A DNA stretch of 64,000 nt from Amoebophrya sp. A120 (GCA_905178155.1 CAJINV010000010.1:3882599-3946598), one strand, 5' to 3'. Counted from the first letter of the stretch, positions 7,619-64,000 are shown. Notes: a model not told the origin generated them from the letters alone. Numbers and translations are program-made.

Positions 7619-8913
7619 ATGGACCTCCACGTGCTGCAGGGCCTGGAGCAGGCGTCCTCCTCCTCCCTTGACAAAACTCTGAAGGAAGAAAAAGCCCGAC
7701 GAAAAGACAAGGAATTCCGCGAATTTCTGGTGCATTCCGGTGCGGCGGACTCTCTCCTGAAACTCGTCATTTCCCTTCGCGAGCACGAGGCGTTCACAAG
7801 TGAGAAGTTTCCGCTGTCGACCGAGGAAAAGACCGGGATTTTGAAACTTTTGTTCGACTTCTACGGATCCCAGCCAGATCCGATATGGGACGAGATCGAT
7901 TTTTTGAGAAAATCGAACACCGCCATGGGACAGGATCTGGTGACGTTGGGGAAAAGTATAAAATGAGACATAAAAGTTTAGCTGGTTGTAGTGGTTTGGT
8001 AAAACAAAAACGACTTTTGTCTTTAATACTATGAGAGTCCTCGCAGGAATACACTTGAAGTACTTTATTAGATTCACGCGGTTCATCTGTGTTGCGCAAA
8101 CACACAACTAGGTATCACCAGTGTTGAGCAGGACATTGCAGTAGTGCAAAGACGAGCTTTCGCGGTCCGGGCATGGAAATTCATCTCCAACCTCGAGGGG
8201 ACGGATGAAAGGACATTAGATATCCTGAGTAAAAACATACCCACACCAGAGTCAGGATGGGGATTTTGCAACACAAACCTAGGAGTTTTGTGAGTCACGC
8301 ATGACAAGTTGCACTATGCAGTAGTGCAGGTTAGCAAGTGCAGCCGCATCACAGATTCATCTGCTCATCCTGTTCACAGCATCACAAATTCCAAAACACA
8401 ATTGGAAATGGCTCTCATGGGGATGCGCGTTACAAGTCTTCCTGTCTTTGCAAATCTGCATTACAACTCTGGCGTGGGTACGTTTTTGCTCAGGATATTA
8501 GAAGAGGGCCAGACGCTGCAGAAACGAGACGCGATAAGCGGTAATTACAATTAGGGCTACTTATACTTTGTCATGCAGATTTGAACATAATGATAGTCCT
8601 TACACACTGCAGTTCAGCATGACAAACCGAATCCGAATTCATCATATACCAAACCGAAGGTAAAGAGTTTCTCACCCGTCTCATCGGCGCCTACAAGAAG
8701 CTCCCACACCCGTCGCTGGTCGAGCTGCCGTCGATAGAGAAGAAGAAATTTGTCAACCGAGGGGATGTGGACGACCGAATGGCGCTGGTGTTCATCCCGG
8801 AGGCCTTGGGATTGACGGAGGACAACTCGGCTGGGCCGTTGTATCCGGAACCGGACGAGGAGTGTTTCGCGAAAATCGCGGAAGTGCTGGCTGCGCTGCA
8901 GGTGGAGGAGTGA
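7619..8913 (+). CDS. MYCBP/AMY-1-like domain protein (multi-exon)
   Basis: KDKEFREFLVHSGAADSLLKLVISLRE resembles the MYCBP helix motif; further exons near 8112-8220, 8503-8540 and about 8615-8913 (...IAEVLAALQVEE*). Confidence 0.5.
8221..8497. mobile_element. introner family E (TATCCTGAGTAAAAAC TIR)
   Basis: TIRs plus TTAGA direct repeat; near-identical copy at 53790-54068. Confidence 0.9.
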
Positions 8914-9684: not shown

Positions 9685-12591
9685 ATGTCCGACTGCAAAC
9701 CGGAACTGATCCGGCAACTCCAGCTTCTCGCGAACGACCACAAGACGCGCAACGACACCTTTCGCGTCCGGGCCTACAACAAGGTGTTACAGTCACTGAA
9801 AGATTCCAACGCGGTCGGGGCGATCAAGACGGAAAAGGATCTCGACAATGTTCCGGGGTTGAGCAAAACCGGGTCGATCCGGCAGCGGATGGTGACGATT
9901 ATCAAAAATTTCTCCGCCGCATCATCAAAGGCTACCAGTGCTTCTACCTCTTTATCCCCTGCTTCAACAAACAAACGAAAGCGCAGCGACAGTGTGGACA
10001 GCAATAGTATTAAACAAGCGAACAGCCAGCAAGGAAATAGTAGTAGCGCAGGAGCGGGAAGTAGTCAGAAGATAAACAGCCAGGATCTGGACCTTCCAGA
10101 AGTGAAAAAGATCAAAGAGTCCAAGGAGTCGCAGATTCTCCAACAGTATACATTGCAAAACTGTCTGGGTCTGGAAGGATGCAAAGTTTGTCATGCTTGT
10201 CTGACATAACTGAAGAGTTTGTGATGCATGTCCAAGAAGAGCAAGAGACCCTCTTGCTTGTAATGCAAAAACGCAGTTTTTTATGCGGAAACCGCAACAC
10301 TCAGGCGCGCAAATATTTTTCGTGCTTGGCTGTGCAGCAATGCAGCGCATTCACTATTCCCAGCGCAGCATTACAAGTTTCCAGACTCAGACAACATATT
10401 TGCATTTGATCAACAGCTGCAGAAGATCCATGGATTCGGCGGCGTCCGGGCGCAGCAGCTCGTGAACAGTTACAAGGTAAGAAGTCTGGCCGACTTGCTG
10501 AAATTGCCCGACAATGTTCTAACCCGGACGGAGAAAATTGGCGTGGAATACTACGACGATATCAACGCAGACATCCCGCGACAAGAGACCGAGCAGCACG
10601 TTGTGTTTCTGAAAAAACAAGTGGAGAAATTGAGTGCCGTGTTGAAGAAGGATAGTACCAGCACTAACAGTAAAAGTAGCCAAATTATATTAAATGATCT
10701 CCAATTTTCCTGCGAAGTGACCGGCTCCTTCCGGCGGGGGGAAAAGAAAAACGGCGATATCGATCTAGTTTTGACTATGAAAAACCACAAAACCACTCTC
10801 GAACCGAAGAAGGTTTTCCAGGGATTTTTAGCCTTGTTGGCAGAAACCGGGTATTTGACGGAAACTTTGTATGAAAGCGTCAGAATCGAAATCACCAAAA
10901 TCGAAATAGTTTGTGATGCATAAAATCGATGCCACTTGGGGCCTCAGTTTCCAAGTGGAGCATGACAAATTTCGGGAGCGCCAAAATCCAGTCTGTCATG
11001 CTGTTTGGGCAAATAAGACCGCTCCTGTCATGCTACTCTGGCAATTCATTTTTAGGGCTAAACAGGCTTGCAATCGGTCATATTTGCCTCCTCTCCAACA
11101 CTGGCCTTCTGTGCCCTACATTTTACGCATTACAAATATTTTGATTTTGTCGATTTCGATCCTGACACTCCCATACTTTGGCTTCGTCGGTGGAATTGGA
11201 GAATTACGGAAATAGTTCGTATTCACCGGCTATCAAATGCAAAAATGTCTGGGTCTGGAAGATTGCCAGGTTTGTGATGCATATTTTGCATAACCCATGA
11301 TGCCTGTAATGCATGAACTAACATCACAGGTTCTTAAGGGTCCTTCTGATGCGTATTCCGCATGAGACATGCCCACTCCGCGCAGCACAAACTGAACCCC
11401 TCTTGCTGGTCATGCAATACAGATTTTCTTTACCTTCCAAAGACAGCATCACAAGTTGCAACCTTCCAGACCCAGACATTTTTGCATTTGATACCGGCGG
11501 GGAAAAACAATAACAAGGGTAGTATAAAAATAAAAGCCGGTCGCTCGTCAACTTCATCCTCGTCCTCTTTGAATAATAAACCCTCGTCGACGTCGTCGAC
11601 CCCGAGCCTAACTTTTTCCCCTTCCAGCAGACTACACGGAGCTGCAATACAAAAGGTTAATTCTGATTCCTCTACAAGTTCCAACAACTGGTCGTTGAAA
11701 TGGACTATCAAATGCAAATATGTCTGGGTCTGGAAGAATGCAAGTTTGTCATGCTTGTCTGGCGTGACTCATAAATCTGTAATGCATGAGCAGGAAAATG
11801 GCCTCTTTCCTGTCACACAAAAACGCAGTTTGCCATGCGGAAAACGAAACACAGTAGTAGCTTAAAAATTTGTCATGCTTGGCTGCGTATTGCAGTCCGC
11901 CCACCAGTCACATTTTAGCATCACAACTTTCCAGACCCAGGCACTTTTGCATTTGATATGGATGGGTCTGGCGAAACTTTTTCTCCACGACAACGACAAG
12001 CTCAACAAGCACCGGAGATTGGACATTCTGTTCGTCCCTTCGGAAATTTACCCCTTCACGCTGGTCTATGAGAGTTGATAACTCTCCCTTCCCCTCATTT
12101 GTATTGCATGAACAGCAATACAACCGTTGGCAAGAGTGCGGGTTTTCCATGACAAATTCACCCAGGACTCTAGTGCTGGTTGATCTTTCTGCCAGAACCT
12201 GTCATGCAAAAGGTGCCAAGAGGCAAATAGTGGATTTGGTATTTTGCATGACAAATGAGAGGGAGGGGTTGTGCACTGTCATATGGTCCATTTCACGGGC
12301 AATGCGCTGTTCAACATCGATCTGAGGAACCACGCGCTAAACTGCGGCTACAGTTTGTCCGAGCACGGTTTCCGGTACGTAAAGAAGGAAAGCAGTGCGA
12401 GTCAAGCTGCGCTGAACAAGAAAACACCCTCGAATCAGTACTCGAACCAATTTGTTTCCGAGCTGGACATTTCGAAAAAACTGAACAAGAAGAAATTCGA
12501 GACCGAGGCGGACGTGTTTCGCTTTTTGGGCTTGAAATACATCAACCCGGGGGACAGGAAACATGGAGTGTTAGGGAAGCATCGACTCTAG
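9685..12591 (+). CDS. DNA polymerase family X (pol beta-like), 6 exons
   Basis: After removing 5 introners: FRVRAYNK (lyase domain), LQKIHGFGGVRAQQL (HhH), GSFRRGEKKNGDIDLV, KWMG, HRRLDI, LVHFTGNALFNIDLRNHAL, EADVFRFLGLKYINPGDR. Confidence 0.92.
10147..10410. mobile_element. introner family A (TATCAAATGCAAAAATGTCTGGGTCTGGAA-type TIR)
   Basis: TIRs; CAACAG direct repeat; removal restores the polX frame. Confidence 0.88.
10870..11175. mobile_element. introner family B (TATGGAAGCGTCAGGATCGAAATCGAC-type TIR)
   Basis: About 55-bp TIRs; CTTTG direct repeat. Confidence 0.9.
11231..11493. mobile_element. introner family A
   Basis: Perfect about 31-bp TIR; CCGGC direct repeat. Confidence 0.92.
11706..11958. 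mobile_element. introner family A
   Basis: TIRs; TGGAC/TGGAT flanks; restores KWMG. Confidence 0.9.
12067..12283. mobile_element. introner family C (TATGACAGTGCACAAC TIR)
   Basis: TIRs; TGGTC direct repeat. Confidence 0.9.
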
Positions 12592-13450: not shown

Positions 13451-16400
13451 ATGAGCATGAGGCTGAAATCCACCACGAGCTCTTCAGCAGCTCATCCGCG
13501 CACGAAGACCTCCGCTGTCACGGCGCTGCTCTGCTATCTTTGCGAGCATGACTTGTTCCTCGGAACGGACGCGGTGGAGGTGCTGGTGACCAAGAAAAAT
13601 CACAAGAAAGCGACCGTCGTGAAGAAAATGCCTGCTGATGATGAATGTTGATGGCGATGTCGTGAAAACGCCCTCGTCCTCCGCGCTCGAACGCAAGGAG
13701 GAAAATGTTAAAGCAGGGAAGAATGAACAAGATCTTAAAAACAACAACGCTCCTCTCATCTTCGACACGGCGGGCCGGTACAATGCCACTGCTTCAACTA
13801 CACCTGGAGATGAGAATCATGGCTCTGGGCATCCGCATCAAGAGCATGAAGATGACCTCGGAAGCTCCGGGTCGTTTGTCCAGCAAGGCTATTTTGTCCC
13901 GCTGGGCTCGGAACGCTTTGCGGCAATATGAAAGTGCACGAGTCGACGACGTCCCTCTCTCTCGTTTCTTGTCATGCAGAATTCCGAATCCTAATCCATT
14001 CCTACCTGGGCACTAGCTTTGGCTGTGTTTGCATGACACTTACTGTAATAAGCCCAAACTGTATGCAAGAAAAAAACTGTGTAAGTGTAAGTCTGTGATG
14101 CAGAAAATGCAAAACAGTTACGCTTGTCATGCTCTACATGCATGATAGGCTCGCTTCCTACGTGTTTTCCCGTCCTATCTGCGCATGACAAGTTTTTCCT
14201 GTCATGGCAGACGAACTTGTGATGCTGTTTTCCCAAAAGACCTACACTAACACAGTTTTTTTCTTGGATAAACTGCACTGCTTTCCTGGACTACTAGGTT
14301 TGTCGCACAAAAGCCTCACTTTGCATATGGCCCCCTCAAAACGTAAGTTCTCAACTCGTAAGTGCGCTACCCATATTTTTTGCAAACCCGCTGCCCCATT
14401 TTTTTTATTTGTGAGGAGCAGTAGGGCCCGACGCACGTTGACCCGAGCGCGGCAAGCTTACGAAGAACATGCGCTGGACCGCAGCGGCGGGAAGCTTGCA
14501 CTGCCATGCTTCGCCGCAACATCTAAAGACGGCCACTGGGCCGGGCATAACGTCACGCGCGAGGGTATGGAGCACATGGGAAATCATCAAAAAGCTGCGG
14601 GCGCTTGATGCCTTCGCACATCCTCCCGGCCGGTCGCAGGGCGCGCGCCACAGCCTTCAGACATGACTTATTTTGCGCCCGTCATCTCTGACACCATCAG
14701 GCAGGTTTCGCCGCGATTCTCTTGCGCCGCCCCGCCCTCCGTCAGCCTATCCTCTTGCGCCGTCCTCCGCCCACCCCAGGGGGGGGTCGGTCCGTCAGCC
14801 TGGGGCGCCCCTCTCCCATTCTTCAGTGCCCCGGTCCGCCCGGCGTCTTTTTTCTTGCATCGGCACCCCGGCCCACCCCCGCTCGTTGCTTCCTCTCGAA
14901 AATACCGGCACAGGCTGGGCCGCCCGCATGCGCATCGCGGCCCGGGCGCAACCGGCCCGGCGAAAATGCGCGTGAGGCTTGCCGCCACCCAGTCGGGACG
15001 ATGGCCGCCCCAATGCTGCCCGGGCCTTTCCTGGACTACTAGGTTTGTCGCACAAAAGCCTCACTTTGCAGGCTGTTTGTGATGCTTCTAGACATGCCAT
15101 ACAAACGAGGGCGGGAGGCGGAGGGACTTGTGCACTCGCATATTAGAACGGTAACAGCTGCGGCGGTGGTGCCGGATGTGGGGATCAAAAGGACTCGGAA
15201 CAAGGTATGGCGTTCTCAAATGTTACATTCTCAGCTGTTGCATGTATTTGTCATGCAAAATGAGCACCAACGTCCACACAGTGAAGCTGCCTCGCATGAC
15301 AAATTTTGGAAGGGCTAAACAGCACTGGAATCCGTGCCGAATTTGTAATGTAAGAGTTGCAAGATCCGGTCTTTCCCTGTTGCCATTCTTGCATCACCAA
15401 TTCATGTAACAATAGAGAATGTAACACTTGAGAACGCCATGCAAGGAGCCGCACCTGCCCCTGCGGGCGGAGAAGGCGGGGCCGGAGGTTCCTTTGCCCC
15501 CCTGGCAGTGTCGAGCGAAGGTGTGGCATATCCCGCGGAAAAACGTACTCACCCTAGAGTTATCATGGAAATCTAGTGCATGTTGCGCAGGTGCAAATGG
15601 GTACTACATGTTTATACAATATAAGTAAATGTCTCTTCATGCGGAGGCCTATGAGGAGTATGATTCGCTATGATAAGTATAAAGGAATTTGTCCTGCTCG
15701 AGTCTTCAGCGCACGAGAGTGACGCGGCTGCACTAGACTGAATTGGGACTACAGTTATCAGACGCTGAGTTGTCATGCGGGACCACCTAAGCTTCTGTGT
15801 TTGTCTAGCAGATTTCTATTTTGGCCGTGGGGTGAACGCATTTTCACTCAGGATACGCGGGCAGAAAGAATCATGCGCGTTTATGATGGCGATTGCCATG
15901 CCGTCGACGGCCGTTACTACGCCAAACCGAACGGATAAGATACGATAGTAAAGCGGGGAAGGATGAACAAGATCTTAAAAACAACAACGCTCCTCTCATC
16001 TTCGACACGGCGGGCCGGTACAATGCCACTGCTTCAACTACACCTGGAGATCATGAAGATCATGATTCTGGGCAGCAGCAGCAGGAAGATGAAATCGGCT
16101 CCGGTTCGTTTGTCCAGCAACGCTATTTTGTCCCGCTGGGTTCGGAACGCTTTGCGTCAATATGAAAGTGCACGAGTCGACGACGCCCGTCTCTCTCGTT
16201 TCTTGTTATGCAGAATTCCGAATCCTATTCCTAATCCATTCCTACCTGGGCACTAACACTAAGTAGCTTCGGCCGTGTTTTCATGACGCTTACGGTATTA
16301 AGCTCAAACTGCACTGCTGTCCTGGCCTACTAGGTTTGTCGCACAAAGAAAAGCCTCACAACTCTGCAGGCTGTTTGTGATGCTAGACATGCAATACAAA

Positions 16401-24024: not shown

Positions 24025-25935
24025 ATGTCGCTCCGGACTCTCTTTTCTGCCTTTGAGGAGCAACTTGCGCTGTTCAACGCCACCGCAACGCCTTCCGCCT
24101 CATCAACAACTAGAGCGCAAGTAGCGACTGCAAGAACAAGTATTACGCGGCCCACCGAGCAAGTCTTAGGAGGCGACACGGGCACGGGAAGTCTGAAACT
24201 ACTACCTGGAGAAGCACACCATGGGAATCTGCTCTTGCCCAGTCAAGGCTCGATGCAGAGTACCAGACGAAAAAACTTTGCTACGTCGCACCTAGAAACT
24301 CGTCCCGTACGAGAAGCTGGCACTCCTTCAGCCGGTACTGGGTTCTTGTTCAGGTTGCAGCATCATGCTGGAGCAGTTGAGCCTCCCGCTCCTGCAACCC
24401 GGGGAATAAGAAGTAGCATCCTTGCTGCTTCTGATGTGGAAGCAGCAGCAAATTCGAAATTTCGAGCATTGAAAACCAAAACTACAACCAAGAAAGCTGC
24501 AGGACGAGGACCGACTTCCTTCTACCTGGACTGTTCTGCGGAATCGGGCGCCATGGAGGTGATGCCGCGGTCGGTGAAGAACATGTGCCAGAAACTGCTG
24601 GACAAGTTTTACAAGAAGCGGTGGACCTACGGGTACTGGATGCCGCTGAAGCTCATTTACGACGACTGGACGGACCTGATGAAGTTTCAATTTAAGTGGC
24701 TGACGAAGAAGAACTACAACCCAATCATGCCGGAAGAGTTTCACTGGTTTTACAACACAAAAAGCCAGCAGTGGTCCCGGTGTACCGAGTGGCACATGAA
24801 CCAGTGCGGAAAATTCACGGCCAAGTCGAGCTGGATTCCGGAAAAGTTCCGAAAGAGGTTATCCTGTGCAAAAGTATCGTATTCGTATTGCAGTCAGGCA
24901 CTAAGTACAAATCTTTTTCTTGAGGTAACTCCGGATTGCATCTCATGCTGAGGAAATGATGCACTTATACGAGTGCGATACTTTTGCAATTCATAGAGGT
25001 TCTGTACCGACGATTGGTACGAATGCCAAACGCTGGAAGAGCCCTGGACCTACTTCGGCTTCCCGTCGATGCAGCAGTGGAACAGCAGTTGTGGGGTCGG
25101 GTATTAACGTGAAAAAAGCCCCAACCCCATACTCAAAATGCAATTTGTGTTGCTGGATTTGTGTACAGAAATGAACTTTGTATTGCAGCAAGAGCTTGTC
25201 GGCATCCTCTAAGCCCATTTGGGTACGCATCCGGCTAGCAGCTGAGCATAAGAAACAAATCTGGCATAGGCGAAAACGCATGGCAGACTCGCTGTACATT
25301 GCGCCACATGGATGCCGTTTGCCTTGTACGCAAGACAAGGCTGATTTGTGGCCACAAATCAGCATCACAGGTTTCCTTTTCGATATGGGGAGGGGAGATT
25401 TTTCCTCACAATACCGGGCCAAGTTTGCTGACACCGCTGCTATCCGGGACCCCGCTGACGCAGTTGGGTAGCTGCAGTCGGGCAAGTGAGGTAAGGTCAA
25501 ACTTTATGTTTTCTTGATAGAATGGCATGAAAAACGCGCGCTGTAATGCGGCGAAAATTTGTATGCCTATGGAGCAGTAGCAAGGACGCGGTGGCATGAC
25601 GATGGTCCTCCACCTCGTTTCGGAACCGGTTCTAATTCTTGTGACTCCTGCGATATATTCACAAAAAAGAAATAAATCTATCAAAACAGGTCTGCCTCGT
25701 GCCCACCTTTTCCGGGACCGGCGCCTACCAACACTACTTCCGCGCGGCCGCGAAGGCCGTTGGGCTGACGCAAGAGCAATTGCAGTCCTGGACGAATTTG
25801 CAGGATTACCGTTGCAAGGACCTGGGAACGAATTTGAACAAAGAAATTTTGCAGATGCTGGAACGCAGCCCGGACACGAGGTTGAATACTTCCAAATTGA
25901 ACTGGCTCTGGGGGGACAAAACTGTGTTTTTCTGA
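24025..25935 (+). CDS. hypothetical Trp/Cys-rich protein (start uncertain)
   Basis: Continuous frame after removing introners 24860-24995 (GAGGT) and 25102-25413 (TCGGG/CCGGG) and GT-AG intron 25491-25689. Confidence 0.65.
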
Positions 25936-35738: not shown

Positions 35739-38700
35739 ATGACGAAAACTTCCCTGAAGAAAACAACCCTGGCCTTGGCGGCCACCGGCGCCACGGCGGT
35801 GGAGGTGATGATCCTCAAGCACTTGAAAAAATCCAAGGCGGGCCGTCGTGCACAGGTTGGAAAAAGCGAGCAGCGGCTGCTGAAGACCGGCGCGGGTGAA
35901 CTGCACAAGGCGGGACGACAGGAAGAATCTGCTGCGACCCGTCTCGCAACGGATCCTTTTGAGCGCTATGCGCTGGTCGATTATGACGATGACTGTTTGG
36001 ACTCCGGCACGATTAAGGCTGACGCCCAGTTCCACTGTAAGAAGGTGGGCACTGCTGGTGCAGACTCCGGGCCTGTCGAAGTCTGCAGCGGCTTGATGGA
36101 GAACGGAGATTCTCCTTGCAACGGCGCTGACCAAACGGACACGGGCAAGTGCCAGTGGGACGCCGACAACGGAAAATGCAAGTTCCGCGACTTCGTCGCG
36201 GAGAACAACCAAGGGTTTCAACACTGCCGGACGCACGCCGACGAAGCCGCCTGCAACGGCGCCGCGGCTGAAACCATCCCCTTCGGAGGGTCGTGCTTCT
36301 GGCGGTCCGAAGTGAGCGCTTGTGTTTTCACGCCGGAATGCCTCGACGATCCGGCTCCCGCGGCTGGCGGCAGCTGCATCAACCCTGCGTCACCGAGGAA
36401 TCGGGCTGCGTTCGGGGACTGGGGCATCGGGCTGGTGTCCGCAGACGGGAAAACGGGCTGCGGCGCGATCGAAACCGAAGGAGCCTGCAACGCGTACCCG
36501 AACTGTCTGTGGGACGACGATGCCGCAGCGACGCCGCAATGCACAGTGAAACGGGCCGCAAACGACATCACACCGACGGCGGGCAATGTCACGGTGTCGA
36601 GCACGTACTCATCCACGACTTCCAAGCAAAACCTGGTGGACGGAAACCTGCTGGGGAACCCCTTCAACTCCGCTGACGGCGAAGACGGCGAAGACGCGCC
36701 TGCCCAGAAGTGTCCGTGGGTCCAGCTGGAACTGCCAAATGAAAGCACGCAGGTGGGCCACGTGGAGCTGACCACGCTTCTGCATTCCGACTACGCTCTT
36801 AACCGCCTCCGCCGGCTGTTTTTTCGCAAGAAGATCCTCAACTTTGCTGGTGACAAAACGTGGAACGCAACGGACGGAAACCTCCCGGAGGGAAGCCTTG
36901 ACACAGAGCAGAACAGCGGCATCCGAGTTCTGGTCACGAACAACAAGCGCGATGTTCCGGCTGCCGGGCGTGGTGACGCGTGCGCGGAGCCCGCCAAGGT
37001 CTGCAACTCCCGCAATGGCGCGTGCTACGACTTCGAGGTCTGCGAGCACATCATCTGCAAGGAAGGCGAAGGAGCGACCTGCAAGAACCGGTTCGTTGTG
37101 CCGGAGGGCATGCTATGAATTGCAATTTACATATAATCTGGGAGGTCTGGAACATTGCCTCAAAGAACCCATGAAGATGCTAAAAACTGGCCCGCTTCTT
37201 ACTGTACGCAATAAATAAGGGCGAACTCCTCGTTCTCACGCGGGTTAAGCATGTTGGAGAAGCTGCCTCCTGCGCAAAACCTGTAGATGAAATCATGCTC
37301 GCTGTAGTTCGACGTGCATTTGTTCAGGATCGATGGTGTCGTCTGACATGTGGACTTCGACTTCTCCAGAGGACCCAGACATTTAATTAAATAATTTGCA
37401 GTTGATAGATGCCCCCGGACGCCGGCACCGCTACCGTCGACTGTAGAGGGAAGATGGGGAAGTACTTGACCATTGAGCTGCCCGGCATCGAGGAAAACCC
37501 GGGAGCCGGCGATCCGGAGTTCCGCATTCTGAACCTGAACGAAGTGAAGGTGTTTCGGCCTTTATCAAAAGGAAGAATCCCCCCTCCCCATTATATCAAA
37601 ACGAAGTTTCTGATGCTGGATTAATTTACGTACACAAATCAGATTTGTATTGCTGGAGAGGACCACTGCAGGCCTACAGTAATCCTGAGTAGGGAGGTTT
37701 TGGGCTAGGCCTAGGCACTGAGCATGGCAAACGTCTACTCTGTAGGGCCAAGAGCATCACAAACCGCCTGCAGAATGCGGCGGAGCCTGTGGAGTTGCGT
37801 TCTTGCAAGACAGAGACGATTTGTGGCCACAAGTCAGCATCACAAAAAATTTTCTGAGACGTACCTTTTCGATTTCTGGGAGGGGGGATTTTTCATTTTG
37901 ATAGCCTTCGGCGCCACCGGAACCGAAAGATATCACACCGTCCGCGGATGCGATCACAGCGTCCAGCGAATTCAACGAAGATCACGATGTGGACTTTCTG
38001 GTGGACGGTGACCTGCTATCGAGCAAAACAGCTGCGTTAGTGGGGTTCTTACTCACTTTGTAAAAATGCAGATGAAGAACACGTTAAAAATGTGCCGGTC
38101 AAGTCATCATGCCCATGCGTTGCAAGGTGCTCTCAACCTCCGCGTTTTCGCGTACTGTAGTAAGTATGTATGATCTTCGTGTGATAACATTTTGCTGTCA
38201 TGTTATTACCCGCTTCTCCAAAACCAAAATATTTGTAATGCTGCTTCTCCAAAAAGACCAAAATTAATAAATACAAAAGCTGGACTAACGCGGTTTTTCT
38301 CCTGGATACCTGTCTGGCCTTGTTTTCAACACCGCGGACAACAATTACGGCAGCCCTGGCCACTATGGTAGCGTCAGGTTGGAAATCGAAATTGACAAAA
38401 TGGAAATTATAGATTATTTGTGAGGCATAAAATGATAATGAATCGATACCCGCCTGCTTCGGAGCCCCAGCCCCCATTTGGTCTAAGCGGAAATAGGTGC
38501 ATCTTCAATGGCAAAAGAAACAGCGGGCTTTGTCATGCTCTTCAGCATGATGATCCCCATGATCCAGGAGCCTGGTCAGGAGATTTAGGTCTGGCACATA
38601 TTTTACGCAGCATCCAGTGCAAGAACACAGGCACTTTATTTTGTCGTGTTGCATTGAATTATACCTCATCCCATCGTAGAATTACTTAGATGCATGTTGA

Positions 38701-40725
38701 AGTAGATTTACTTTTACATTTAGAGTTAGCAGCTTTTCCATTTTTCCGATGTCCAACCTCTGACGCTTTGATAGCCAACATTGCCCGTGGGTGCAGCTCG
38801 AGCTGTCCGGCGTCAGCACCGGAGCCAAGGTGGGCGCAGTGGAGCTGACGAGCTACATCTCCGGCGACGGGCTGTTTCGGCTGCGCCGCCTCTTTTTCGA
38901 CAAGAAATACGATGGAAACACTTGGAACGCCACCGACCCGGCGAAGATCGAGTCGAACGTGACCGACCAGCAGAACGCCGGGTTTCGGGTCCTCCTCCAG
39001 AGCGAACCCCGCGACCGCTCCGCTACCTCGAGATGGTTTCACCAGTACGTGACACACAAAGAGACCGGGGTGACGCGCATCCGGGAATGGTGGCAAGGTA
39101 CTGGAAAAGGGGAGACCTGCGACGCCCTGTCGACCAGCAGCGCGGCCCAGGTGTGTGAACACGTGGTTTGCGAAATTGGGGAAACGTGCAAGGACCAATT
39201 CGTGCCAGACGCTACCATTGATGGGGTCGGTACCGCCACGGTGGACTGCGGAGGCAAGGAAGGAAAGTACTTGATCATCGAGTTGCCGGGGGTTGTGCCG
39301 GGAGATTCTCCAGACACCCGCATCTTGAACCTGAACGAAGTGAAAGTGTTTGCGTTTGCGCGCCGCGCATGCGACACCTTCGATCAACAAGCCAACTGCC
39401 CCTCCGATCGCTGCGCGTGGGCCGACGGAAATTGCGGCGACAAGACTGCCGACCCAGCTGCGTGCGACACCTACGATCAGGCCACCTGTCCCTCCGATCG
39501 ATGCGCGTGGGCCGACGAGAAGTGCGGCGACAAGACTACCGAACCAGCCGCATGCGACACCTACGAAGAGGCCACCTGTCCCTCCGATCGATGCGCCTGG
39601 GCCGACGACAAGTGCGGTGACAAGACTCCAGGTACTTGTTGTCGCAATTTTCTTTTGTTCTAATAAGCAGCTCGCTCGTTGACGTGAACATTCTTTTTTG
39701 CGAGAATGATTGCACGAAGTCTGCAAATCATGTTGGCGAAAAACAAAAACATACTTCTAGCTTTTACTTACTCCTGGCTTGAACTTGTTCCACGTCATTT
39801 TTGTAACATCAACAGAAGCCTGCAGCACACTGGCCGAGGATGAGTGTGCTGCCCGGTCCGCCGATTGCACTTGGGATGCCGACGCAACCACTTGTGGGGA
39901 CAAGTCCGCGTCCGGACAGCAAGCTATCGTATGTAAAAACGTACCCACCCCATAGTCAAGATGGGGAATCGGCTAGACAAATCCGCGAGCTTTGCCTGTT
40001 TCGCATGACAAATTTGGACGCGTAGTGTAGTGCTGTTTGAGCTAGTTCAGCAGCATTACAAATCTAGTCTCTCATGCTGATTGGAGCATGACAAATTTCA
40101 AAACACCATTAGCAAATGCTTCTCATGGGGCTCCGCATGAGAAACATTTTAAGCATGCAGATTTGCATGACAACTATGGTGTGGGAACGTTTTTACACAG
40201 GATACAAGCCTGCAGCACCTTTACCGCAGCTGAGGACTGCGACGAGAGTCGTTGCACCTGGGACGCTATGCAGTGCAAAAGTATCGTACTCGTATAAATG
40301 CATTACAGATTTCCTCAGCATGAGCGATAAAGTTTGTAATGCGGATTTACCTTAAAAAAGAGATTTGTAATGCAAGACTTGCATTAGCATTCATACGAGT
40401 GCGATACTTTTGCACAGGATAGACGCAAACGCCGACGAGGGGGAATATGACAGTGCACAACTCGTCCCCCTCCCCTTCATTTGTGCGGCAAGAACAGCAA
40501 CACAAGCAACGACAGCGATGCCACTTCCGCATGACAAATTTGCACGCTTGTAGTGCGGTTTGGGGTTCCAAAATTTGGCATGCAGACACTGCCTAGGGCC
40601 AGGGTCGTGTGGACTTGGTATTTTGCATCATTTATAGAAATGTATAAAGGGGAGGTGGGGTTGAGGTTGTGCACTCTCATAGGAAAAAGTGCTCCGACGT
40701 TGAAAAATATCCAGTGCAAAAGTGA
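35739..40725 (+). CDS. large secreted Cys-rich protein with two F-type lectin/discoidin-like domains and Cys repeats
   Basis: Twice CPWVQLEL...TVDC.GK.GKYL.IELPG...RILNLNEVKVF; C-terminal CxxxxxxxC...CxW repeats; introners 37114-37407, 37563-37903, 38364-38773, 39925-40204, 40267-40421, 40446-40681. Confidence 0.75.
39366..39628 (+). repeat. three about 90-bp coding repeats (ACDTYDQATCPSDRCAWADEKCGDKT)
   Basis: Directly visible in DNA and translation. Confidence 0.9.
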
Positions 40726-45600: not shown

Positions 45601-45961
45601 ACAACTCCCCCTCCCCCACATTGGTATAGCATCAACGGCAATACAAGCATCATCAAAAGTGCCGGCTTTGCATGACAAAGTTGCACTGGAGTGTAGTGCT
45701 ATTTGGGGTACCAGAACTTGTCATGCAAACAGTGCCAAGGAAGAGGCAAGTGGTGGATTCGGTATTTTGCGTGACAAATGAGGGGGAGGGGGAGTTGTGC
45801 ACTCTCATACTTTCAACTCCCAGCTTATCGGCAGCTGCTCCGTGAAAGCGGAAAAAACGGACAAGTTTGCGGTGGTCTACCCAGTGTTCGGGCTCTACGC
45901 GAAGGGACAGAAGATAAAAATCGACTTCCAGGCCCTGCTGCCGCCGAGTGCGTCCAGTTGA
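42620..45961 (+). CDS. coiled-coil + BTB/POZ (KCTD-type) + SPRY-like protein
   Basis: LKLSCSGVNFQLRK|GALAFVPDSHLNALF...DGRYVLDFNPECFALILDYV (BTB); GYFEAK...LAIGV...GSVIGCEY...VYPVFGLY (SPRY); introners 42687-42827, 42860-43142, 43180-43328, 43497-43646, 44255-44500, 44839-45127, 45590-45809. Confidence 0.8.
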
Positions 45962-50571: not shown

Positions 50572-51261
50572 TCTTCGGTTTGTGATGTCGTGCCAGATGA
50601 AGTTGTAGATGGTAGACCAAGAACTACGCTGATCAAGCTCGTTCTGGTGTACAGAAGAACGATCCATGTCGTGCAGTTGTGATTCAGATCAAGCAGTTTG
50701 CAGTTCTACTTGATGCCATACCTACACGGCGAAGATCTGACACAACGTGAGGATGATCTTTCTGGAAGTGAGAAGGTCAGCCCAGCACAAGTGGTTCTGC
50801 GTCAACTACGAACGTGTGGCTGTATCCTGCTTGTTGCTTATTTGTCATTACCATCTTCAAGGCGAACTTCGTGCGCAAATCCGGACTGTGAAACACTTTT
50901 AACTGTAATGAAAGAGCCTTCTCGGCTTGTCAATTGGTAGCTTGCTTCTCTTCAAAGAGGCAATGTTATAGACAACATTTCTAATTTACAACTCACAGCG
51001 ACAAACACTGACACTGAGTAGAAATTTACTACGACGTTTTTGGCGACATGATTTACTTATTTACATTCAACAAAAATCACGAACTTTGAGTTTCTCTTCT
51101 GGCTTACGTAACAAAAATCAAAACTATTATTTCGTATACGAGCCGTTTCCAATTCCATCCCCCTACACGTTACCTCCCCACTCGTCCCCTCCCCGAAAAA
51201 AAAAATAACTACACACACGACTACGTGTTATGTTTGACACAAGAAGAAGAGCAACTTGAAA

Positions 51262-54200: not shown

Positions 54201-54848
54201 TCATGCGTGGCTTGCAAGGGAAAACACTCGTGAAAAGAGGACTTCGTGGTTGTGCGGCATGACAGGTGTACCTCTGTTGCATGTTCTGCATTACAGAGTT
54301 ACACTTACACAGTTTTTTTCTTGCATAGTGTGTGGATATGATGACGGCGTCCCAGTCTTGGGATATCAACAAAAGCTTTTTTGCTGGCCTTGCGGTTTTG
54401 TCAAAAGGTGGAGCCCTGGGGTTGCCGGGACGGAGTGTTCGTGGCCAAGAACGCGTTTCAAGCGCTCGCCGACCGCGAGGAGTTTCTGGCGAAGAATTTC
54501 AAAACCGTGAGAAAAAACGTCAACGCAGAGGGCGATGATCAGGAAGAGGGCGAGGATGCTGACAACGAGGAAGATGCTGATGGCGCCAACAACAACAACA
54601 TGGAGCGCGTGAAAGTGAGTCGACTCCCCGGGTTCCGTCTGCGGGATAAGCTTGTAAAAAAAAGAATAGAAGATCCGAAGGGGTACTATGAGTTGGTTAA
54701 GCAATTCACCAACCAGTCCGTCCAAAAGGAGAAGGAAAGAATGCGAAAGGAGGAACAAGCCCCGGCGGGGGCCGAAGAAGAAGTACTAGATGGTAACGAG
54801 AATCGAATAGCTTCGCCCGCTGGGTGTGAAATCGCAAACTTGCGCTAG
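51262..54848 (+). CDS. hypothetical acidic multi-exon protein (3' structure uncertain)
   Basis: Coding-like exons joined across introners 51409-51559 (TCAAG), 52948-53199 (TTGAA) and 53282-53584; further introners at 53790-54068 and 54119-54327 plus GT-AG introns; frame not resolved near 54070-54350. Confidence 0.55.
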
Positions 54849-56636
54849 AAGGTTCAGTTTTGTGGAAAATTCTTCTCCGCCCGCGGTTCGCTCTAGCCCG
54901 ACGGTGCACGCTGCCGGTACTTCGTTTTCCCCTCGTGGCGACGTCGAGGTGCTGAGTCGTGCTCGACGAAGGACTACTTCGTGTAGCGTACGACACCTGC
55001 TTGAAGACTGACTGACGGACATCATGCCAACCTGTGCGTCTCTCCTCACCGCTTGCTTGCAGACTGGTGGAAGCTACTGCTACGGCAGCTGACGAAACGA
55101 TCACGATCGAAAGAGAATGCGTTCGACGTCTGTCTTCGATGTGGCACACAACAGGTATGAAGAAATTTATAAGACAATAAGCATTTTTGCACTACAGTGT
55201 AGTACGTTCGGCGTAGGTTGCAGCGAATTTTGAATTGACCACGTAGCACCACGTCGTCGCGAAGGAAAAATCGATATTCTAATACTAAAAAACAGAAATC
55301 ATCACGGGATCGGTGCGTTGTGCGAACAGGGAAACGGGGTCGATCAAGAGACGGGAATCAGCCGGCAAACGTGGTGAACAAAAAAAACGTCTTTTGGGTC
55401 TTGCAGTGTCCACGGATGGTTGTAATGATATACTCATTATGTTTCTGAAGCGGAAAAGATGAAGTTTCTGGTTCGACATGTCGCCGAACTGGACTACAGC
55501 TGTCCAGTATGTGAATAAAAAATTTTGTAGTAATGTCCACACGGTGCAAAAAATGTACGACGAAAATTTGCAATTAGAACGGATGATATGAGACGCGCAC
55601 GACTTACACGGAAAGATTTGTTCGCCGCGTATGTGACGTCCTCGAGGAATCAAGGACGCGAACAGCACGAATTACAGGATACTGATGATCTCGAGCAGGT
55701 CGAGATGGGTGAAGTGCTGATCAATCGCTGATGTTGTAAATGTATAGATCCGGAAATTGTTGCTCACGCATCAAAATTGGAGCCACTCACCAATATATGA
55801 AAAAATGTAGGATCTACAGTGATCGCATATGATCGTCGTGCACGACAAACGTCAGGTCGTGGGGAGACTGTCGTACGACAGAAGAAATTTTGATCGTGAT
55901 GGGGTTGTCGTACAATAGACGGAATTAAGATCGGGGTGGGATTGTCGTGCAACGTCATAGTATCCGAATGCAGTTAGTGATCGTCATAGAAATTATGTTC
56001 AAATAGTGAGTTCATGATGCAAAAATGAAAAAATGAATCTGGATTTTTCTACGCCACAGTTTTTCACTCGGGTCGATTGTACTGAAAGTTTTTTCACCTG
56101 CGGTCCACCCAGTGACGTCTTCGAGTCCATCGTAGTTTAAAAAATTATGACTTTTTTTATAGGGAGTTCTGGAACTTTATCAACGTTTATCAATCGATCG
56201 CGGCTACGTAAAATATTTGCGGAATAGATAGTCACAACTCTGTACAATCGGACAATCGTAAACAAATGCAAGCATACTTTTAGGCTTTCAATTTTTTTAG
56301 CACGGGGATTTTTCAGGTGACTCTATTTGATTAGACCGCAAGTGTAATATTTACAGTTTATTCTATACGCGGAGAGCGACTGAGTAACCCGGGCGGCACG
56401 GAATGGTGCGGCGATGCAAATTATCGTTGAGAAAAATAGGTCGTCGTGGAGTATACCACTTGATGCATGCATGAATGGCGACAAAGAAAAGTTGCATGTA
56501 GTTGGTGGGATCTGTACATGGGCCGGATTTTGGTGTGAAGTGAATGGACGGAGAATATCGCCAGTCGCCGAGCGTGGTCACGTACCAAGATCAAAATGAT
56601 ATTGCTCCACGATGACGACTTTTGCACTTAATAAAA

Positions 56637-59600
56637 ATGCGCGGTCGAACTCGACCCCCCAATTTCTTGTACACGGGACGCCACGGCTATGGAAGCGTCA
56701 GGTTTGAAATCGTCAGAGTTGAAATAGTTTGTCATGCACAAAGTGCAGCCCTCAAGGTGCCTGCCTTGCAGAGTATGCAAGTGAGGTATATTGTAAGCCG
56801 GTTGTGGGGTAGAAACTGAGCTGCTGAAATAGCATGACAGAACGCGTCTTTCTTACCCAAACAGCATGACAGACTGGATTGCGGCTCTGCCCAAATTGGT
56901 CATGCGCCACTTGGAAACTGGGTCACAACTTTCATCCATTTTATGCATGACAAAGTACTTCAATTTTGTCGATTTCAACTCTGAGACATCCATAACGGCT
57001 CGGCCGAAGACTCGCGAATGCAATCGTATAATTTTGCGGCGCAAGGATGCGGACGGGAAATTAGAGCCGCCTTCGATTATGATGATGAAGTTGTTACGCT
57101 CTTCAGGATGTTTAATGATCGCCGCCCCGCCGGCAGAGGAAACATGTTGAGGGGCTCAATCCGAGGAACACTCTCCAACAACCATGAAAATAGGTTGTGT
57201 CCGGAGTGTAGGTTGAACTTGTTTTACCTGAAGAGCTCAATCACGTCTGGACATGAGTTTGAAGCTGTCCGCCATGGACAGTCGTAACGTATTTCTTCTT
57301 GCGGTAGCACTACTGACTGTACAGGCACGGAGGGCGTAACAATACGACACTGCATACACGAATTCTGCCGACTCCACCGCGGACTTCCGATCGAATGTTT
57401 TGAATGCGCAAAACACTTACCCAATTCAAGTTTTCGGGAAGCCGTGCAGAAGGAGGTTGGATTTCGGCTGTTATCATCCTCTATGGTGTTGCTTTCGTCA
57501 CGCGGATAGAAATTTGTAATGCATAAATCAGAAACATCGACCACATGCTGTACTACAGTTTGTATTTTTCGGGCAACCTTTGACATATTCTCGGCTGATG
57601 TCTTCCGTGCACAGTCTCGCAGTTCGATGTAGCTCATGGAATGCTTCAACTTGTCGCGGGTAGGCTTTGATCAGTGCGAGCCATCGCTTCGCACAGAGAA
57701 AAAGTCCCTCTATTGAGCAGACCGCTGGAACGAAACTCACTGCATAAACACGATGCGACGCATGCCTGTTTGCATCGCGAAAAGATGTGAAACTCCCGGG
57801 AAACACGTTGGAGGGGAAGTACAAAATGCGTATCGCTACGGAAGGAGAAGTGGAAGAGGAGGTGGAGTACTGCCAAGAAGTGCCGACTCCGACTGGCACG
57901 CGGCCGCTTTTTACCCCATGTCCTGAAGGTTGCGGATTCGGTCTGCTGGAGGGTGAGACCTCCGGCATGTGTTGCAGTGGACGGGGGATATTTATCGAGG
58001 GAAAAAATCTTCCTTCTCCTTATCGAAACGAAGTTTCTGGGGTACGATTTTCGCACACGAATCGGATTCGTCCGGCTGAAGAGGATGACAGGTGTATACG
58101 ACGCCTGACTTGAGGAGTTTTAGGCTGGACTTTTTTGGATATGCACATCAATGTCATGAGTCGCGACTTTGGCGATATACAGAGGTGGGATTTTTTCCTA
58201 ACGATAATTTCGGTAAAGCGGTGGCACCGATGGTACACGGAGAGTGGATCACTTCATCGTGCCCGACAGGCGCGATGGTATGAGCTTTAGCAAATGTAAA
58301 AATGTTTCCGTTTAGAAAACCGCCGCAACAGATTTTATGCTCGGAGGTCATCTTCACACCGCAATACGTTGCGTGAACGGGAAAAAGGGTAAGTACTAAT
58401 GATGTACCGAAGAGGGGCGGTAGACATGCAGGATCGGCATCTTGTAGGTCTTACAGAATGTCGTAGGGCAGGACACTCATAACATACAGCATGAGACATG
58501 GAAAATTGGCATTGCAAGTTTCCGAATCTTTCTGAAGCGGACACTTTTACAGTCCAGAAGCTTCTTCGACGCGCAGAGGACCACGAAGTAACGTACAAAT
58601 TTCCGATCATGCGGAAACTGAATCGAGACAGTCGACTGACAGTACGGCTGGGAAACATGAAGAAGGTGCACTGGGACGAATCAAATGTAACCCTCAAAGG
58701 ACGATATGCGGATGTAATCCGCTACTGGGACGAATTAACGATAGAAAATGTTGTCACCTCGACACGAAGAACGACTTTGCCTGCAGCGGACATAGGACAC
58801 GGAGGACTATGCAGAGTAAAAAAGTATGCAGTTAGGAGTTGTGGCGACCCATAAGTCACCTCCGAGGTGCTGCGGTGCATTTTCTGGTGATGGGCATTTT
58901 ATATGATTTGCATCGACAATGGTAAAAAAAGCGTGTATGTGATCCGTGTTTGATTGGGGTGACTATTTCGGTTTATAGGCGCGTCACCCTTTATACTGCC
59001 ACTGGATCCAGACAGAGGCGGAGGAGGATGTCGTAATGCAGGACAATCAAGAAAGGGAGAGTCGAGCTGCTGCACAACGTCGCGACTACGCGGCAATCAA
59101 AAAAAGCTTCATCGAATTTTTGGTGGAAGCGTCGCCCGTGTATAAGGCTATTTACGACGCACTCACTAACTCCGGGTTCGCGCCGGGCGAAGTACAGTGC
59201 GTAACCGTGAAGACCGAGAGAAACACACCGAGTGTGACTGCAGTCCTAGTAAACCGAGGCGATCTCGTGGACTCCGGAATTTATATTCGGAGTCGTCCGC
59301 CCCGCGCAGCAGCTGAGGAAGCCAGCGATGACAGCGATTCCGAGTCAGAAGAGGTGTCACCTCCGGAACCACAGGCGGAAGACGATTACTTACCGATGGA
59401 CGTCGAAGGCGAACAGGAATACTCGAGTTCTTTTTTCGACGCGTTTCGGAGTGAGGATTCGGACACCCTGGAAGATCCGAGTGACTTCGACGCGGAGGAC
59501 GAATCGTCAACAGAAGAACTGTCTGATGCAGGTGAAGAGGGACACGATCTTCCCCCCCAAATGGACTGGAAACATCAGCACAACGCGCTCCAATATTCTT

Positions 59601-62600
59601 CTGTGGTATGTCAGTGTAATTGTTAAACTTGTTGCTGGAAGGTAGAAAAGGAAAGAAAAAACATTTTGCGTAGTACTGAATGGAGGCGGAAGATGAGCGT
59701 AGGTTTGCGTGATCGAGGTTTTTTCGATTTGCACCGCATGAGTATCTCCTTCTAGTTTCAGCATCGAATTTTTCGCATAAATGCATTACTTGTTGATTTG
59801 CCTGCCATACCCGTATGATGCAATCAGCTATCCACTACTTTTCCCCTTCGGCGTATGGGAGTGTCCAGAACGAAATCGTCAAAATCGAAAGTAAAATTTG
59901 GCTGTTTTTGGCGGAGGCAGTCCGGGGCACGCTTATCGTGGCCTCTTTGCGATTCGGACACACGTCAGCATACCGTCGCGGCTTTGTCAAAAAGGTCTCA
60001 GTGTGTCAGAATCGAAATGCAGATCTCGGCACCTTGCCATGGGGCCCTTGGATTTTCTTTTGATGGAGCGAATTTCGATCTTGACATCTGCATACGGAGG
60101 TGGATATGCCTTGCATGGTCGATAAGGAAGTGGTTACATCGGGATAGACCAAGACGGGGACTCGACCACTACGATAAGCCCTCTAGTTTGCTTGGAGTCC
60201 GGAATTGGGGGCGCTAGGATTGACAAATTTTGAGAACATCAGAATTCGCGTCCACATCCTCCCACTCGGGTGCGCTATTGTTAGTACAACAAATTTGGTG
60301 CTTCACCTTTACCGGTCGACATTCAGTTTTACTTGTATAGTCCATAAAATCGGCGTGTCGGGTCTTACGTTATCGACTTGGTCGATTTCGAATTTGGAAC
60401 TTCCATAATCGACGAATCGATGAGTCGCCGCAGGTATCAAATGTAAAAATATCTGGCTCTGGAAAAATGCAGCGCGTCACGCTAAAGTTGGAGGAGACGA
60501 AAACGTGTGTTGCGTGATTACCAAAAGTCGTACTGTTTTGACTAAGGTGGGAGTGAGTTTCTCTTGTATGATGGGCGTCGGAATGATCGTGCCGAATCTG
60601 CCAAGCTCGGTCTTGCCCTCGAGACCGTAGGGGTCATGGAAAAGCTGCATGACAAATCGAGCATTCTTCTCGTCTAAGACACTTTTACATTCGATCGCGG
60701 GAGGAAATCGATGACGCCGCCGCTGCTGGTAGTGCTCGGGTGAAAAGTGCACAAATTACACGATCTAGCTTCGTTGTGCAGTCGGCGGAACTTCCGCACT
60801 GGCGAGAGGTCGAAGCTCTATGCGAAGAGTATTACATTGCGCAGTATCTGGCAATATCAAACGTAAAACTGTCAGGGTCTGGAAAGTTGGAACTTGTAAT
60901 GCTGGTCTTGCATTCCTGTGGAAACTGTATTGCATGACCAAGAACAGTTGTAGCCTCTTCTGTCATACAAAAACGCAGTTTGTCATGCGGAGTTCGTATG
61001 AGAAAGCGTGCTGCAACCTTGTAATGCTTTCCTGCATAAGCAAGAGGCTTCCTCTTGCACATTTTAGCATCACAAATTCCCAGACCCAGACATTTTTTGC
61101 AATGCACAGGCAAGGGAAAACGACGGCGCGGCGTTCATGAGTCGGAACGGGATTTCGGATCCGGACAAACCTCGAATGTTGCCGAGAGACCACCTGGGGT
61201 CCGCAGCTTACGTCCGAGAAATGCGGTCGCTATGGATTGCAAAAAGGTCTGGGTCCGGAAAAATGAAACTGGTGCCGCTTTTGGTGAAGTCTAAAAAATC
61301 TGTATTGCATGAGTCGGAGGATGTTTCCAGTTTTTGCCGTTCGGAGGAGGTATCTGTCATTCGTGATAGACATCAAGATATCCGCAAAAAATATGCCAAG
61401 CGAAGTCATGGATTACAGGAATGTTAGACTCTACGAAATATGCATGACAAACCTGGAAATCTACAGACGCAGACCTTTTTACACTCGGTAGTCCCGGGCT
61501 CGGAACTATCTCCGCAACTAAAGTGTCCGTGTCATGGCCAGCACACAGGAACCGACGCGCTTGCATCTTTTTTGGCTGTGCCTTGTTCGGACGCAAAGCA
61601 TTCGAATGCGACGCTTCAGACTGCGCCGCGAGAATATGATCATGATACGGGGACACTTTTGGGAAGGAGATAATTTTACAGCGTTCGAAGGGGCCGGCGA
61701 CGGACTTCTATCGTCAAGAAAAATCCCTCCCCTGATATCAGAACGGAATACCTTGCGCATGATATATCGTACACGAATCAGCTTCGTTCGGCCGAGCGAC
61801 CGCGGGGCGAGATCCCTCGGGCCCTTGTTTAGACTGAACTGCATGCGAAACTAAAATCACGACGGGGGGGCTTTTTCTACTCTAATCGGCCTGGAAGACG
61901 AATGCGATCTGCTGTCTCCAATCAAAAATGCAAAATTTGGAAAACATACCTCTTCGATATGGGTAGGAGGGGATTTTTCCATATGATAGACTCATCACGA
62001 TGACTACCAATCTGCGGTTTATCATTTAAAAAAACTTTCCTGCTCCGTCTATTTGGTGGCGTCCTTGTCACAAATTCTGTGCCATGCATGACACTACAAA
62101 GTAGACGCGGAAGAGTCATTTTCCGAGAATATCGGGGCGGGAGATCCGGCAGATGGGAGGGCGCGGGTATTCGTCGGATTCAACGAATACTCGCGCCTTT
62201 CGTTGGCGATAGGGGGGGAGAAAGCAACGGCTGAAATCGTCGACCTTGGAAACTTCTGCATTGCAAAAGAAAAAAACAGCATATAGCAGCCGGACGAAAT
62301 ATATCCTACTTCGTGGCATTGGCATTGGAATAAAACTAATGAAGGTTCAACTTGGACTCGTTTTGTCGGTTTCGGAGGCTCGGTCTAACCGGGACACAAT
62401 TTTTGTATGATTTAATTTTTCGACCGGCACGATTTCGACGTTGACATGACCATAGAACGCTGCGGCAATTCCTAGCCGACCTAAAAAAAGGAGTTTACGG
62501 AATATGAAGGTCTCAGGTGTTTCGCTTCTCGACGGTCTGGTGCAGGTGTCACGTAAAAGTCTTACGTTTATCCCAACTCAGTTTACACATCTATCTTGCA

Positions 62601-64000
62601 AGGCTACCACGCTCTAGTGAAGGACTGGACTGGTTCGTAGGACTGACGTATTTACTGTAGTCACTTTCTGCATTTTCCTGGATTTTATCGGGATGTTCTT
62701 ACACCTTGGAGTCATAAGTTCGCTCTATCCTAGTTGTCCAAGATCGTGCAGCACGCGAGAGCGAACACTTGAAATTACCATAGAGGCGGTGCGTCTGGTA
62801 CGCGTTGGCGGTTTATCACATGTGAAAACGTCAGGACCTGGAAGAAACCAATCTTGTGATGCGCATGTCGGAATTCGGAAAATTCACTCATGCATAGGCA
62901 GTAAGTGTTTCCCTGTTATGTCACCTAAGTCACGAATTTGTCATGCTGAGTCGACACTCCCGACGTTTTTCGAAACCTGTAATGCTGGAGTTTTCATGCC
63001 AGACCTTCGGCTTCGTGCAGAAATAGCCCGACTCTTCCAGGCTCCGAAATTTTTACACTGGAGACTGTCGAGTGGCAGTTTCGGGGGCTGCCGCCTATGG
63101 ATGCGTCAGAGTTGAAATCGTTGAAGTTGAGACAATGTTTTACGCATACAATGCATGTTCGTCGAAACATCGGTTTGAAGTCGACCATTACAAACTTAGA
63201 TAGTCTCTAAATCCGGTCGGTCACGTTGTTTAGGCAGGGAGAAGTGCTGTTTCTCTCTTAGTTTAGCAACTCGAGCTGTAGCTCCAAACAGGCCTACAGT
63301 CGACTTCACTTTTTTATTCTGCGACGCACATAAACTAAGTAGTGCATTTTATGTATTAGAAACGATCTCAATTTTGACGATGTCAACTCAGACCCTCTCA
63401 TACCGTACGTGCACATCGTATGTCGGCGAACGCCGCTCTGGGAGACGCCGACCGACATGGATAAATTTTTGACGACGCAAAACTACTCCACGTCAATGAC
63501 AAATCTCCACATGAAACAGTATGCAGGTGGTAGGATCGAATTGCTTAAAATTGAAAAGAGTTGAAAAATAAAAGCTTGATTTTGTCGATGGGTGCTGGGT
63601 GCTGCATGTATGTCCGACACCGCGGACGAAGCGGCAGGGAGGGCGATTTGGACCGAGTTTCTTTTTTCAAAATCCGCAAACTCGATCTACCACGTACCAT
63701 ACGCGCGTCTGTCGACGGAACATTTGTGGGCGAGATGAGGGCGATCCGGCGGGGAGGCGCTGTAAGAAGAATATGAACGTCTCCGATCGGAAATCTTCAG
63801 GGTACGAAATAGTTTGTAATGCAAAACAGCGAACTCACCTACGACACTCCTTCTAGTCGGCGCACGATGAACTTCCCCGGTACGGAAAACGTTTTGGTCA
63901 TGCTAGTTAGGCGTGGGAGCGGCATTTTGCCATCGGCTCAGCCGTCTAACTCGTAATCCGTAGAAGGATAGTAATCGGCTTTCATGGTGTTGTCTGCAGT
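56637..64000 (+). CDS. Helitron Rep(/helicase) protein, HUH endonuclease region (Helitron_like_N), 3'-truncated by window end
   Basis: Spliced: CPEGCGFGLLEGETSGMCCSGRG; YDAISYPLLFPFG; EEYYIAQYLARE; MLPRDHLGSAAYVREM; DFITMTTNLRWREI; RAFRWRLRQFLADLKKGVYG; AVEWQFRGLPHVHIV; TPTDMDKFL. Exons before 57787 are less certain. Confidence 0.85.
56688..56994. mobile_element. introner family B
   Basis: TIRs; ACGGC direct repeat. Confidence 0.88.
57993..63722. mobile_element. series of about 18 mostly diverged introners inside the Helitron gene
   Basis: 57993-58206, 58288-58558, 58705-58853, 58902-58995, 59607-59809, 59854-60094, 60123-60407, 60435-60696, 60855-61108, 61231-61490, 61507-61672, 61709-61988, 62020-62131, 62210-62454, 62503-62782, 62814-63064, 63096-63402, 63484-63722. 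Confidence 0.75.

Follow-up and report, generated by a model that had tools for sequence, protein, structure and literature searches.

Introduction

Among described systems, the closest to the elements analyzed here are the introners of Amoebophrya sp. A120, defined by a TAT, seven variable bases, an A-run and repeats of 3-5 nt (Farhat 2021, PMC7789003). According to that report, non-canonical introns account for more than 60% of introns in strains A25 and A120, the manner of their removal being left open in 2021; for A120 it reports the snRNAs U2, U4, U5 and U6, whereas U1 snRNA was not found (PMC7789003). In the legend of its Fig. 3, the position of the splice sites with respect to the hairpin is called variable and the border unknown, and the legend of Fig. 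S23 gives 1-5 nt (PMC7789003).

Related solutions have been described in other lineages. Some TSD/TIR introners co-opt splice sites from the duplication (Gozashti et al. 2022, PMC9860276); in these, as in the elements studied here, the target duplication contains the two intron borders, and splicing thereby restores the exact coding sequence. In Fritillaria borealis, a modified U2 spliceosome is reported to remove MITE-derived, non-GT/AG introns that stem from TIRs (Soo et al., 10.1101/2025.08.15.670264), and the non-conventional introns of Euglena, as described by Nomura et al. 2025 (PMC12501133), share with our elements TIR-like paired ends and fixed spacers between the triplet and the cut.

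Here, we analyzed 64,000 nt of the marine parasite Amoebophrya sp. A120 (CAJINV010000010.1:3882599-3946598), a stretch referred to in its entirety as the window. We asked which letters of the direct repeats remain in the message once an element is removed. Below, "4+1" means that the spliced exons keep four letters of the left 5-mer and one letter of the right, and "net 5" that the element is removed together with 5 nt.

Results

Introner elements of the window

The window is eukaryotic, and its plus-strand genes are interrupted by short TAT...ATA elements with inverted repeats, 65 of which were curated, with a 5-nt direct repeat directly outside the element ends. TAT is present at the 5' end of 62 of the 65, A occupies positions 12-13 in 51-53, and at least four of the five border letters match in 47 of 64. 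The elements are repeated across the genome: word depth over them in a DNA run (X1) is in the thousands, and one TIR pattern recurs at 136 loci of a related assembly. One protein encoded in that assembly, which comes from a related strain and carries this element family, shows 87% identity to a protein of A120, and the nearest relative of the polX gene of the window is an Amoebophrya transcript. The elements thus fit the A120 introners already published by Farhat et al. (PMC7789003), with which they share the TAT, about 7 nt and A-run of the inverted repeats, 5-bp direct repeats, lengths mostly of 110-430 nt, repeated families and removal from mRNA. A previous sequence-only reading of this DNA had described the elements without remarking on their published status. 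Paralogous empty sites carry a single copy of the 5-mer, showing a 5-bp target duplication. No Rfam family was found in the window at the gathering score.

Several loci record the dynamics of these insertions. Three tandem paralogues of an unknown gene (13600-20800) have decayed elements in common and differ in others, with empty sites near 16306 and 16490. A related-strain locus (L058) and window positions 32012-34030, with exons about 95% identical, have one element in common and differ at five or six sites; at the 32394 site of the window, L058 is longer by about 4 bases, which may be the footprint of an excision. Three introners (4765-6554, 13927-15142 and 16578-19804) have grown to 1.2-3.2 kb by nested DNA, and in the latter two the frame is still restored by net 5. 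A sybindin-like gene is followed, immediately past its stop, by a young element (23106-23367) with a 6-nt direct repeat; were the cut fixed at 4+1, one base too many would stay behind. The element at 53790-54068 has perfect 30-nt inverted repeats, no direct repeat and a G in front, and may begin a longer GT-AG intron that also contains 54119-54327. Tandem arrays of a 12-nt unit and of a short GC-rich unit occupy 5450-5860 and 30400-30750.

Reading frame of a Helitron Rep gene

A set of decayed repeats lies in a plus-strand coding region at 57748..63770, split by 17 TIR introners and open throughout in its spliced frame. It contains the HUH and upstream Rep motifs and matches an HMM of 28 Reps with E=8.9e-29; from its motifs, we take it to be a Helitron Rep gene. 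The gene probably runs past the window, where the downstream Y2 motif and Pif1 helicase of a Helitron would lie. Searches for homologues of the exon at 58979 among proteins of 365-2000 aa, for the Rep motif in viral contigs and for PDB matches to the HUH exon found none.

A perfect direct repeat is retained by 2 of the 16 Helitron elements then counted, versus 29 of 48 elements elsewhere in the window. Nevertheless, net 5 restores the frame at 16 of the 17 Helitron elements (57993-63701), which by arithmetic would have a chance of about 3e-7 at one in three per element, a figure that overstates the case, since some of the decayed ends, several in number, were positioned manually by someone who could see the frame. 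The sequence-only reading had proposed that the cut falls 1 nt before TAT and 4 nt after ATA even when the repeat has decayed. All the flanks that it cited are present where it placed them, and net 5 does restore the frame at GGCGA/GAACG, CGGAA/GAGGC and GGCAA/TTAGA, as well as at TGGCA/CGCGG, the flanks of the element at 16578.

The same reading had allowed for one odd element, needing another offset, and placed it at 61507-61672. Such an exception exists, but it is more probably the neighboring element at 61231-61490 (89.1 versus 87.9 bits), the 3' end of which has decayed to GTA. A net-3 removal there, within 61229..61492 on the plus strand, would correspond to a GC..AG intron at 61229-61491 or to 61230-61492; it yields P-G-L-G-I where homologues have D-A-M-A-(V/I), and scores only 1.2 bits above the earlier placement. 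If this upstream element is the exception, the predicted plus-strand intron at 61506..61676 gives Ile by 4+1, weakly the best register at that site.

Junction residues single out one register

Using 28 Rep homologues from public contigs (22 non-redundant), we scored every register at 14 junctions with the HMM. Only 4+1 is compatible with all 14, and, summed over the seven informative junctions, it is ahead of 3+2 by 16 bits and of 5+0 by 21 bits. Three predicted introns, all on the plus strand, each yield the expected residue by 4+1 alone. For the intron at 62019..62135 (element 62020-62131, flanks CGGTT/TCGGG), this residue is a conserved Trp, present in 16 of the 17 non-redundant homologues that cover it; no end-to-end stem is predicted for this element. 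For 63095..63406 (element 63096-63402, CCGCC/CCGTA), it is the first His of the HUH motif, and the assignment rests on that established motif, the count of 22 out of 22 homologues being circular because they were retrieved through the motif itself. Both residues had been predicted by the sequence-only reading. The third, which it did not use, is the His in M-K-H-V-C at 63519..63705. The HMM score stopped short of this site, and MAFFT with masked junction residues put the His two columns off, so it was checked by motif instead: [MN]-x-H-x(1-3)-C occurs in 18 of 18 covering homologues.

Four further plus-strand junctions (elements at 59607, 61709, 62210 and 62503) each eliminate other registers. 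At 59606..59813, a Tyr found in 6 of 12 covering homologues needs the fifth letter of the right copy, excluding 5+0; at 61708..61992, at least three left letters are required for Phe (16 of 17 homologues); at 62209..62458, which starts with TAG instead of TAT, at least four for Arg (K/R in 17 of 19); and at 62502..62786, at least two for Gly (21 of 22). The intron predicted at 62813..63068 (+), with its 3' triplet decayed to AGA, fits net 5 and is uninformative as to register.

One could suppose that the Helitron gene is a dead copy in which residues match by chance and no rule operates: no Helitron junction is covered by the RNA joints listed, one frame anomaly is present, and the gene is very diverged, its single exons giving no match in Pfam. 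Against this stand the 16 frames out of 17, the three residues obtained by one register alone and the fact that the rule also passes in four non-Helitron genes, and we regard such a coincidence as highly improbable.

Two features of the assembly concern the same region. The depth of X1 contigs is 44-60 at 54800-64000 versus 19-31 at 44000-53000, suggesting about two copies of the Helitron region. Between 55201 and 62772, at least 16 single-contig differences between X1 and the window are listed, each an A in the window, including 60125, where the X1 letter restores the TAT end of an element; they are probably an assembly or ambiguity-code artefact, and no informative 5-mer is affected.

The register in other genes and in a related strain

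In polX, the intron at 11705..11962 (+; TGGAC/TGGAT) gives Met with no more than four left letters, ruling out 5+0, and both Met236 of pol beta and a transcript-derived Amoebophrya homologue (KWMG) agree with this claim of the earlier reading. The junction Gln of the intron at 38363..38777 (+) matches an element-free internal repeat of the same gene, again ruling out 5+0, and stops at 16161 rule out two or fewer left letters. The plus-strand element at 15205..15445, with the target duplication CAAGG, has its empty site in a tandem paralogue and becomes a GT-AG intron at 4+1.

Two junctions of the related strain were chosen before their homologues were seen. At the first (L064), the A120 orthologue has Gln, which requires at least four left letters and excludes 3+2. 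At the second (L047, AGCAG/CCTTC), all five letters differ and the registers give QQK, QHK, QLK, QFK, HFK and PFK; an element-free paralogue (P0006), uninterrupted at the site, reads QHK, the product of 4+1 alone. Elsewhere in that strain, two sites of L058 are consistent with 4+1, and one site of L034 matches neither copy.

Alternatively, the cut may slide within the repeat, with 4+1 as the main product and other registers used as well, invisibly where repeats are perfect. This would accord with the variable sites of the Fig. 3 legend in Farhat et al. (PMC7789003) and with the net-3 element, and two comparisons, taken at face value, speak for it: at L033 (AAGGT/TGGAT), a paralogue whose alignment has gaps directly upstream of the site agrees at positions 1, 2 and 4 with the right copy, whereas 4+1 would retain the left one there, and at 38017 a diverged internal repeat agrees with the fifth left letter. 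For 28 of the 49 cases in the related strain, the repeat mismatch also occupies a third codon position, where a free intronic copy should give 42-49% (P 0.03-0.15); this hints at some sliding; with the window added, the excess is not significant (34 of 67), some automatic phases being wrong. For the majority of these 49 mismatched repeats, either the difference is synonymous or the protein has no homologue of use. A codon-likelihood test (3+2, 26.4; 4+1, 32.9; 5+0, 33.9) separates 3+2 from 4+1 but not 4+1 from 5+0, and a GC-drift test for which repeat copy had mutated was null. Since fully decayed repeats yield the invariant or paralogue residue solely at 4+1, we consider sliding improbable.

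On these comparisons of coding sequence, the register is very probably fixed at 4+1. The proposal that N-TAT...ATA-NNNN holds independently of repeat homology is supported by the Helitron junctions together with L064 and L047, and we infer that repeat identity would be unnecessary for removal at 4+1. A search of the openly accessible literature, text and legends, found no paper that fixes the introner register.

Removal from RNA

A set of spliced contigs without other letters (X7), the RNA status of which is guessed, yet which also skip two GT-AG introns, skips the element plus 5 nt at 3 of 3 introner joints among those listed, all on the plus strand: 8220..8501 (282 nt), 24859..24999 (141 nt) and 25101..25417 (317 nt). 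These joints sit in perfect or near-perfect repeats and do not pin the register; at 25101..25417, the first left letter is retained, which excludes only 0+5. Among the joints listed, none lies within 62015..63407 and no Helitron junction is covered. Raw reads of runs X4-X6 gave no exon coverage of window positions 44001-64000, nor did X4 and X6 of 8001-28000, and run X3 behaves as gappy long-read DNA. Excision at the DNA level was rejected, for DNA contigs contain the elements without gaps and the RNA contigs are without them. At 52948 and 53790, the RNA runs X4 and X6 each contribute many reads of a single introner copy that is unspliced and comes from a different locus.

Conservation and pairing of the intron ends

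If removal were measured from the base of a stem, both strands of the terminal pairs should be equally conserved, and the observed conservation is unequal. In the window set of 65, which was partly ascertained through TAT, every element retains both T+2 and A+3, the partners of which are retained in 61 and 62. In the related strain, ends were located blind to the four outermost letters, and the coding signal gave the orientation; 375 candidates were reduced to 328 with at most one mismatch per triplet, a filter that drops ends with two or more changes on both sides, and to 230 with a clear coding strand. Here, all 230 elements keep T+2 and 229 keep A+3, with partners intact in 223 and 227, and the outer TA is broken once at the 5' end versus ten times at the 3' end (p=0.012). 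With both sets pooled, T+2 is intact in 295 of 295 elements, A+3 in 294 and A-5, the partner of T+2, in 284, being broken in 11.

The canonical U2-type signals do not characterize these introns: G occupies +1 in 18 of 64 window elements, AG ends 8 of 64, and the last two letters are free, with 13 dinucleotides among the 64. In the related strain, G at +1 is not enriched (74 versus 62 at the mirror position, of 230) and AG is little enriched (19 versus 12). The two canonical donors supported by RNA both carry T+2 and A+3. The top non-canonical pairs in Table S4 of Farhat et al. (PMC7789003), nine from A120 that are all NT-NN and nine from A25 that are all TT-NN (T at +2 in 18 of 18), are compatible but weak evidence, since aligners are forced to break ties inside repeats and the table may mirror how they do so.

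A removal system could share the 4+1 register and still be non-spliceosomal, an endonuclease and ligase measuring from the hairpin base in a Euglena- or tRNA-like manner, as the sequence-only reading had suggested. The free +1 and last four letters suit such a system, as do the U1 snRNA not found in A120 and the fixed 3- and 5-nt spacers around the paired motif of Euglena, and end-to-end folding is predicted for most elements, the terminal pair probability exceeding 0.5 in 35 of 45 non-Helitron and 8 of 17 Helitron elements. However, conservation within the pairs is asymmetric; predicted pairing is 0.00 at 62020 (the Trp junction), 62210, 58808, 58288 and 60855, each of them consistent with net 5; and the probable exception at 61231 has a well-paired end (0.91). 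These values are folding predictions, and proteins could stabilise weak stems. Thus, an endonuclease of this kind seems unlikely, though it is the strongest of the competing explanations, and we favour a relaxed spliceosome.

The claim that both ends are measured from the stem accordingly has to be divided. It is not supported for the 5' end, where T+2 is invariant, its partner A-5 can be broken and predicted pairing can be 0.00; an invariant T+2 with a broken partner, together with a Trp junction for which no stem is predicted, makes it likely that the donor is recognized by its sequence (N-U-A, like GUA) with any base at +1. At the 3' end, the last two intron letters being free, placement by distance is plausible, and it is likely that the acceptor alone is set in this way.

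Discussion

What appears new here is the fixed 4+1 register combined with the invariant U+2. As an overall explanation we lean, with some reservation, toward MITE-like introners that make a 5-bp target duplication and are removed constantly at 4+1 by a relaxed U2-type spliceosome. Every intron would begin 1 base ahead of TAT and end 4 bases beyond ATA. The spliceosome would read U+2 and A+3 as the donor and place the acceptor by distance; as conjectures, this distance would be counted from the 3' triplet, and the hairpin might join the intron ends in place of the U1 snRNA that Farhat et al. did not find. We also conjecture that the register arose as ordinary GT-AG splicing at NNAGG targets. 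A-7 is a candidate, likewise conjectural, for the branch base: it is kept in 64 of 65 window elements, being lost in the probable exception, and in 227 of 230 in the related strain, the 3 exceptions weakening it as an obligatory branch base. For Stentor, a branch A has been reported 6 nt from the intron end.

The non-canonical introns of Fritillaria borealis (Soo et al.; Henriet 2019, as cited there) resemble those studied here in their derivation from MITEs and in U2-type removal, which we propose for A120. The two differ in that U1 is conserved and terminal dinucleotides are specific in Fritillaria, whereas in A120 neither +1 nor the final dinucleotide is constrained and no U1 was found. Compared with what Farhat et al. 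describe for A120 introners, where sites are variable, we find one register and an invariant U+2. Gozashti et al. describe introners that need GY and AG, whereas here any 5-mer target appears usable (PMC9860276). Euglena belongs to an unrelated lineage, and its introns, as described, likewise have a strict donor and a looser acceptor, but follow N3-CDG...CHG-N5-6 and then a purine (PMC12501133). The elements of A120 do not obey this code: their form is N1-TAT...ATA-N4, with spacers of 1 and 4, and the first exon base may be any, a purine in 36 of 64.

A broader reading, on balance somewhat doubtful, is that a second splicing code, N-UA(U)...(A)UA-NNNN, operates throughout the genome of A120-type Amoebophrya: a spliceosome lacking U1 would have abandoned G+1 as well as the AG acceptor and would count from an adenosine in the transposon inverted repeat. 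Under such a code, a MITE landing at any 5-mer would become a perfect intron, and the code would be an independent counterpart of that of Euglena.

A fixed register shows where the lariat should be sought and which bases should be mutated, and it corrects the junction residues of gene models. That U+2 is invariant next to an unconstrained +1, with the acceptor unconstrained as well, has a bearing on the question of which splice-site letters catalysis truly requires. Finally, a register of this kind would account for how insertions into arbitrary sequence came to be tolerated in the tens of thousands.
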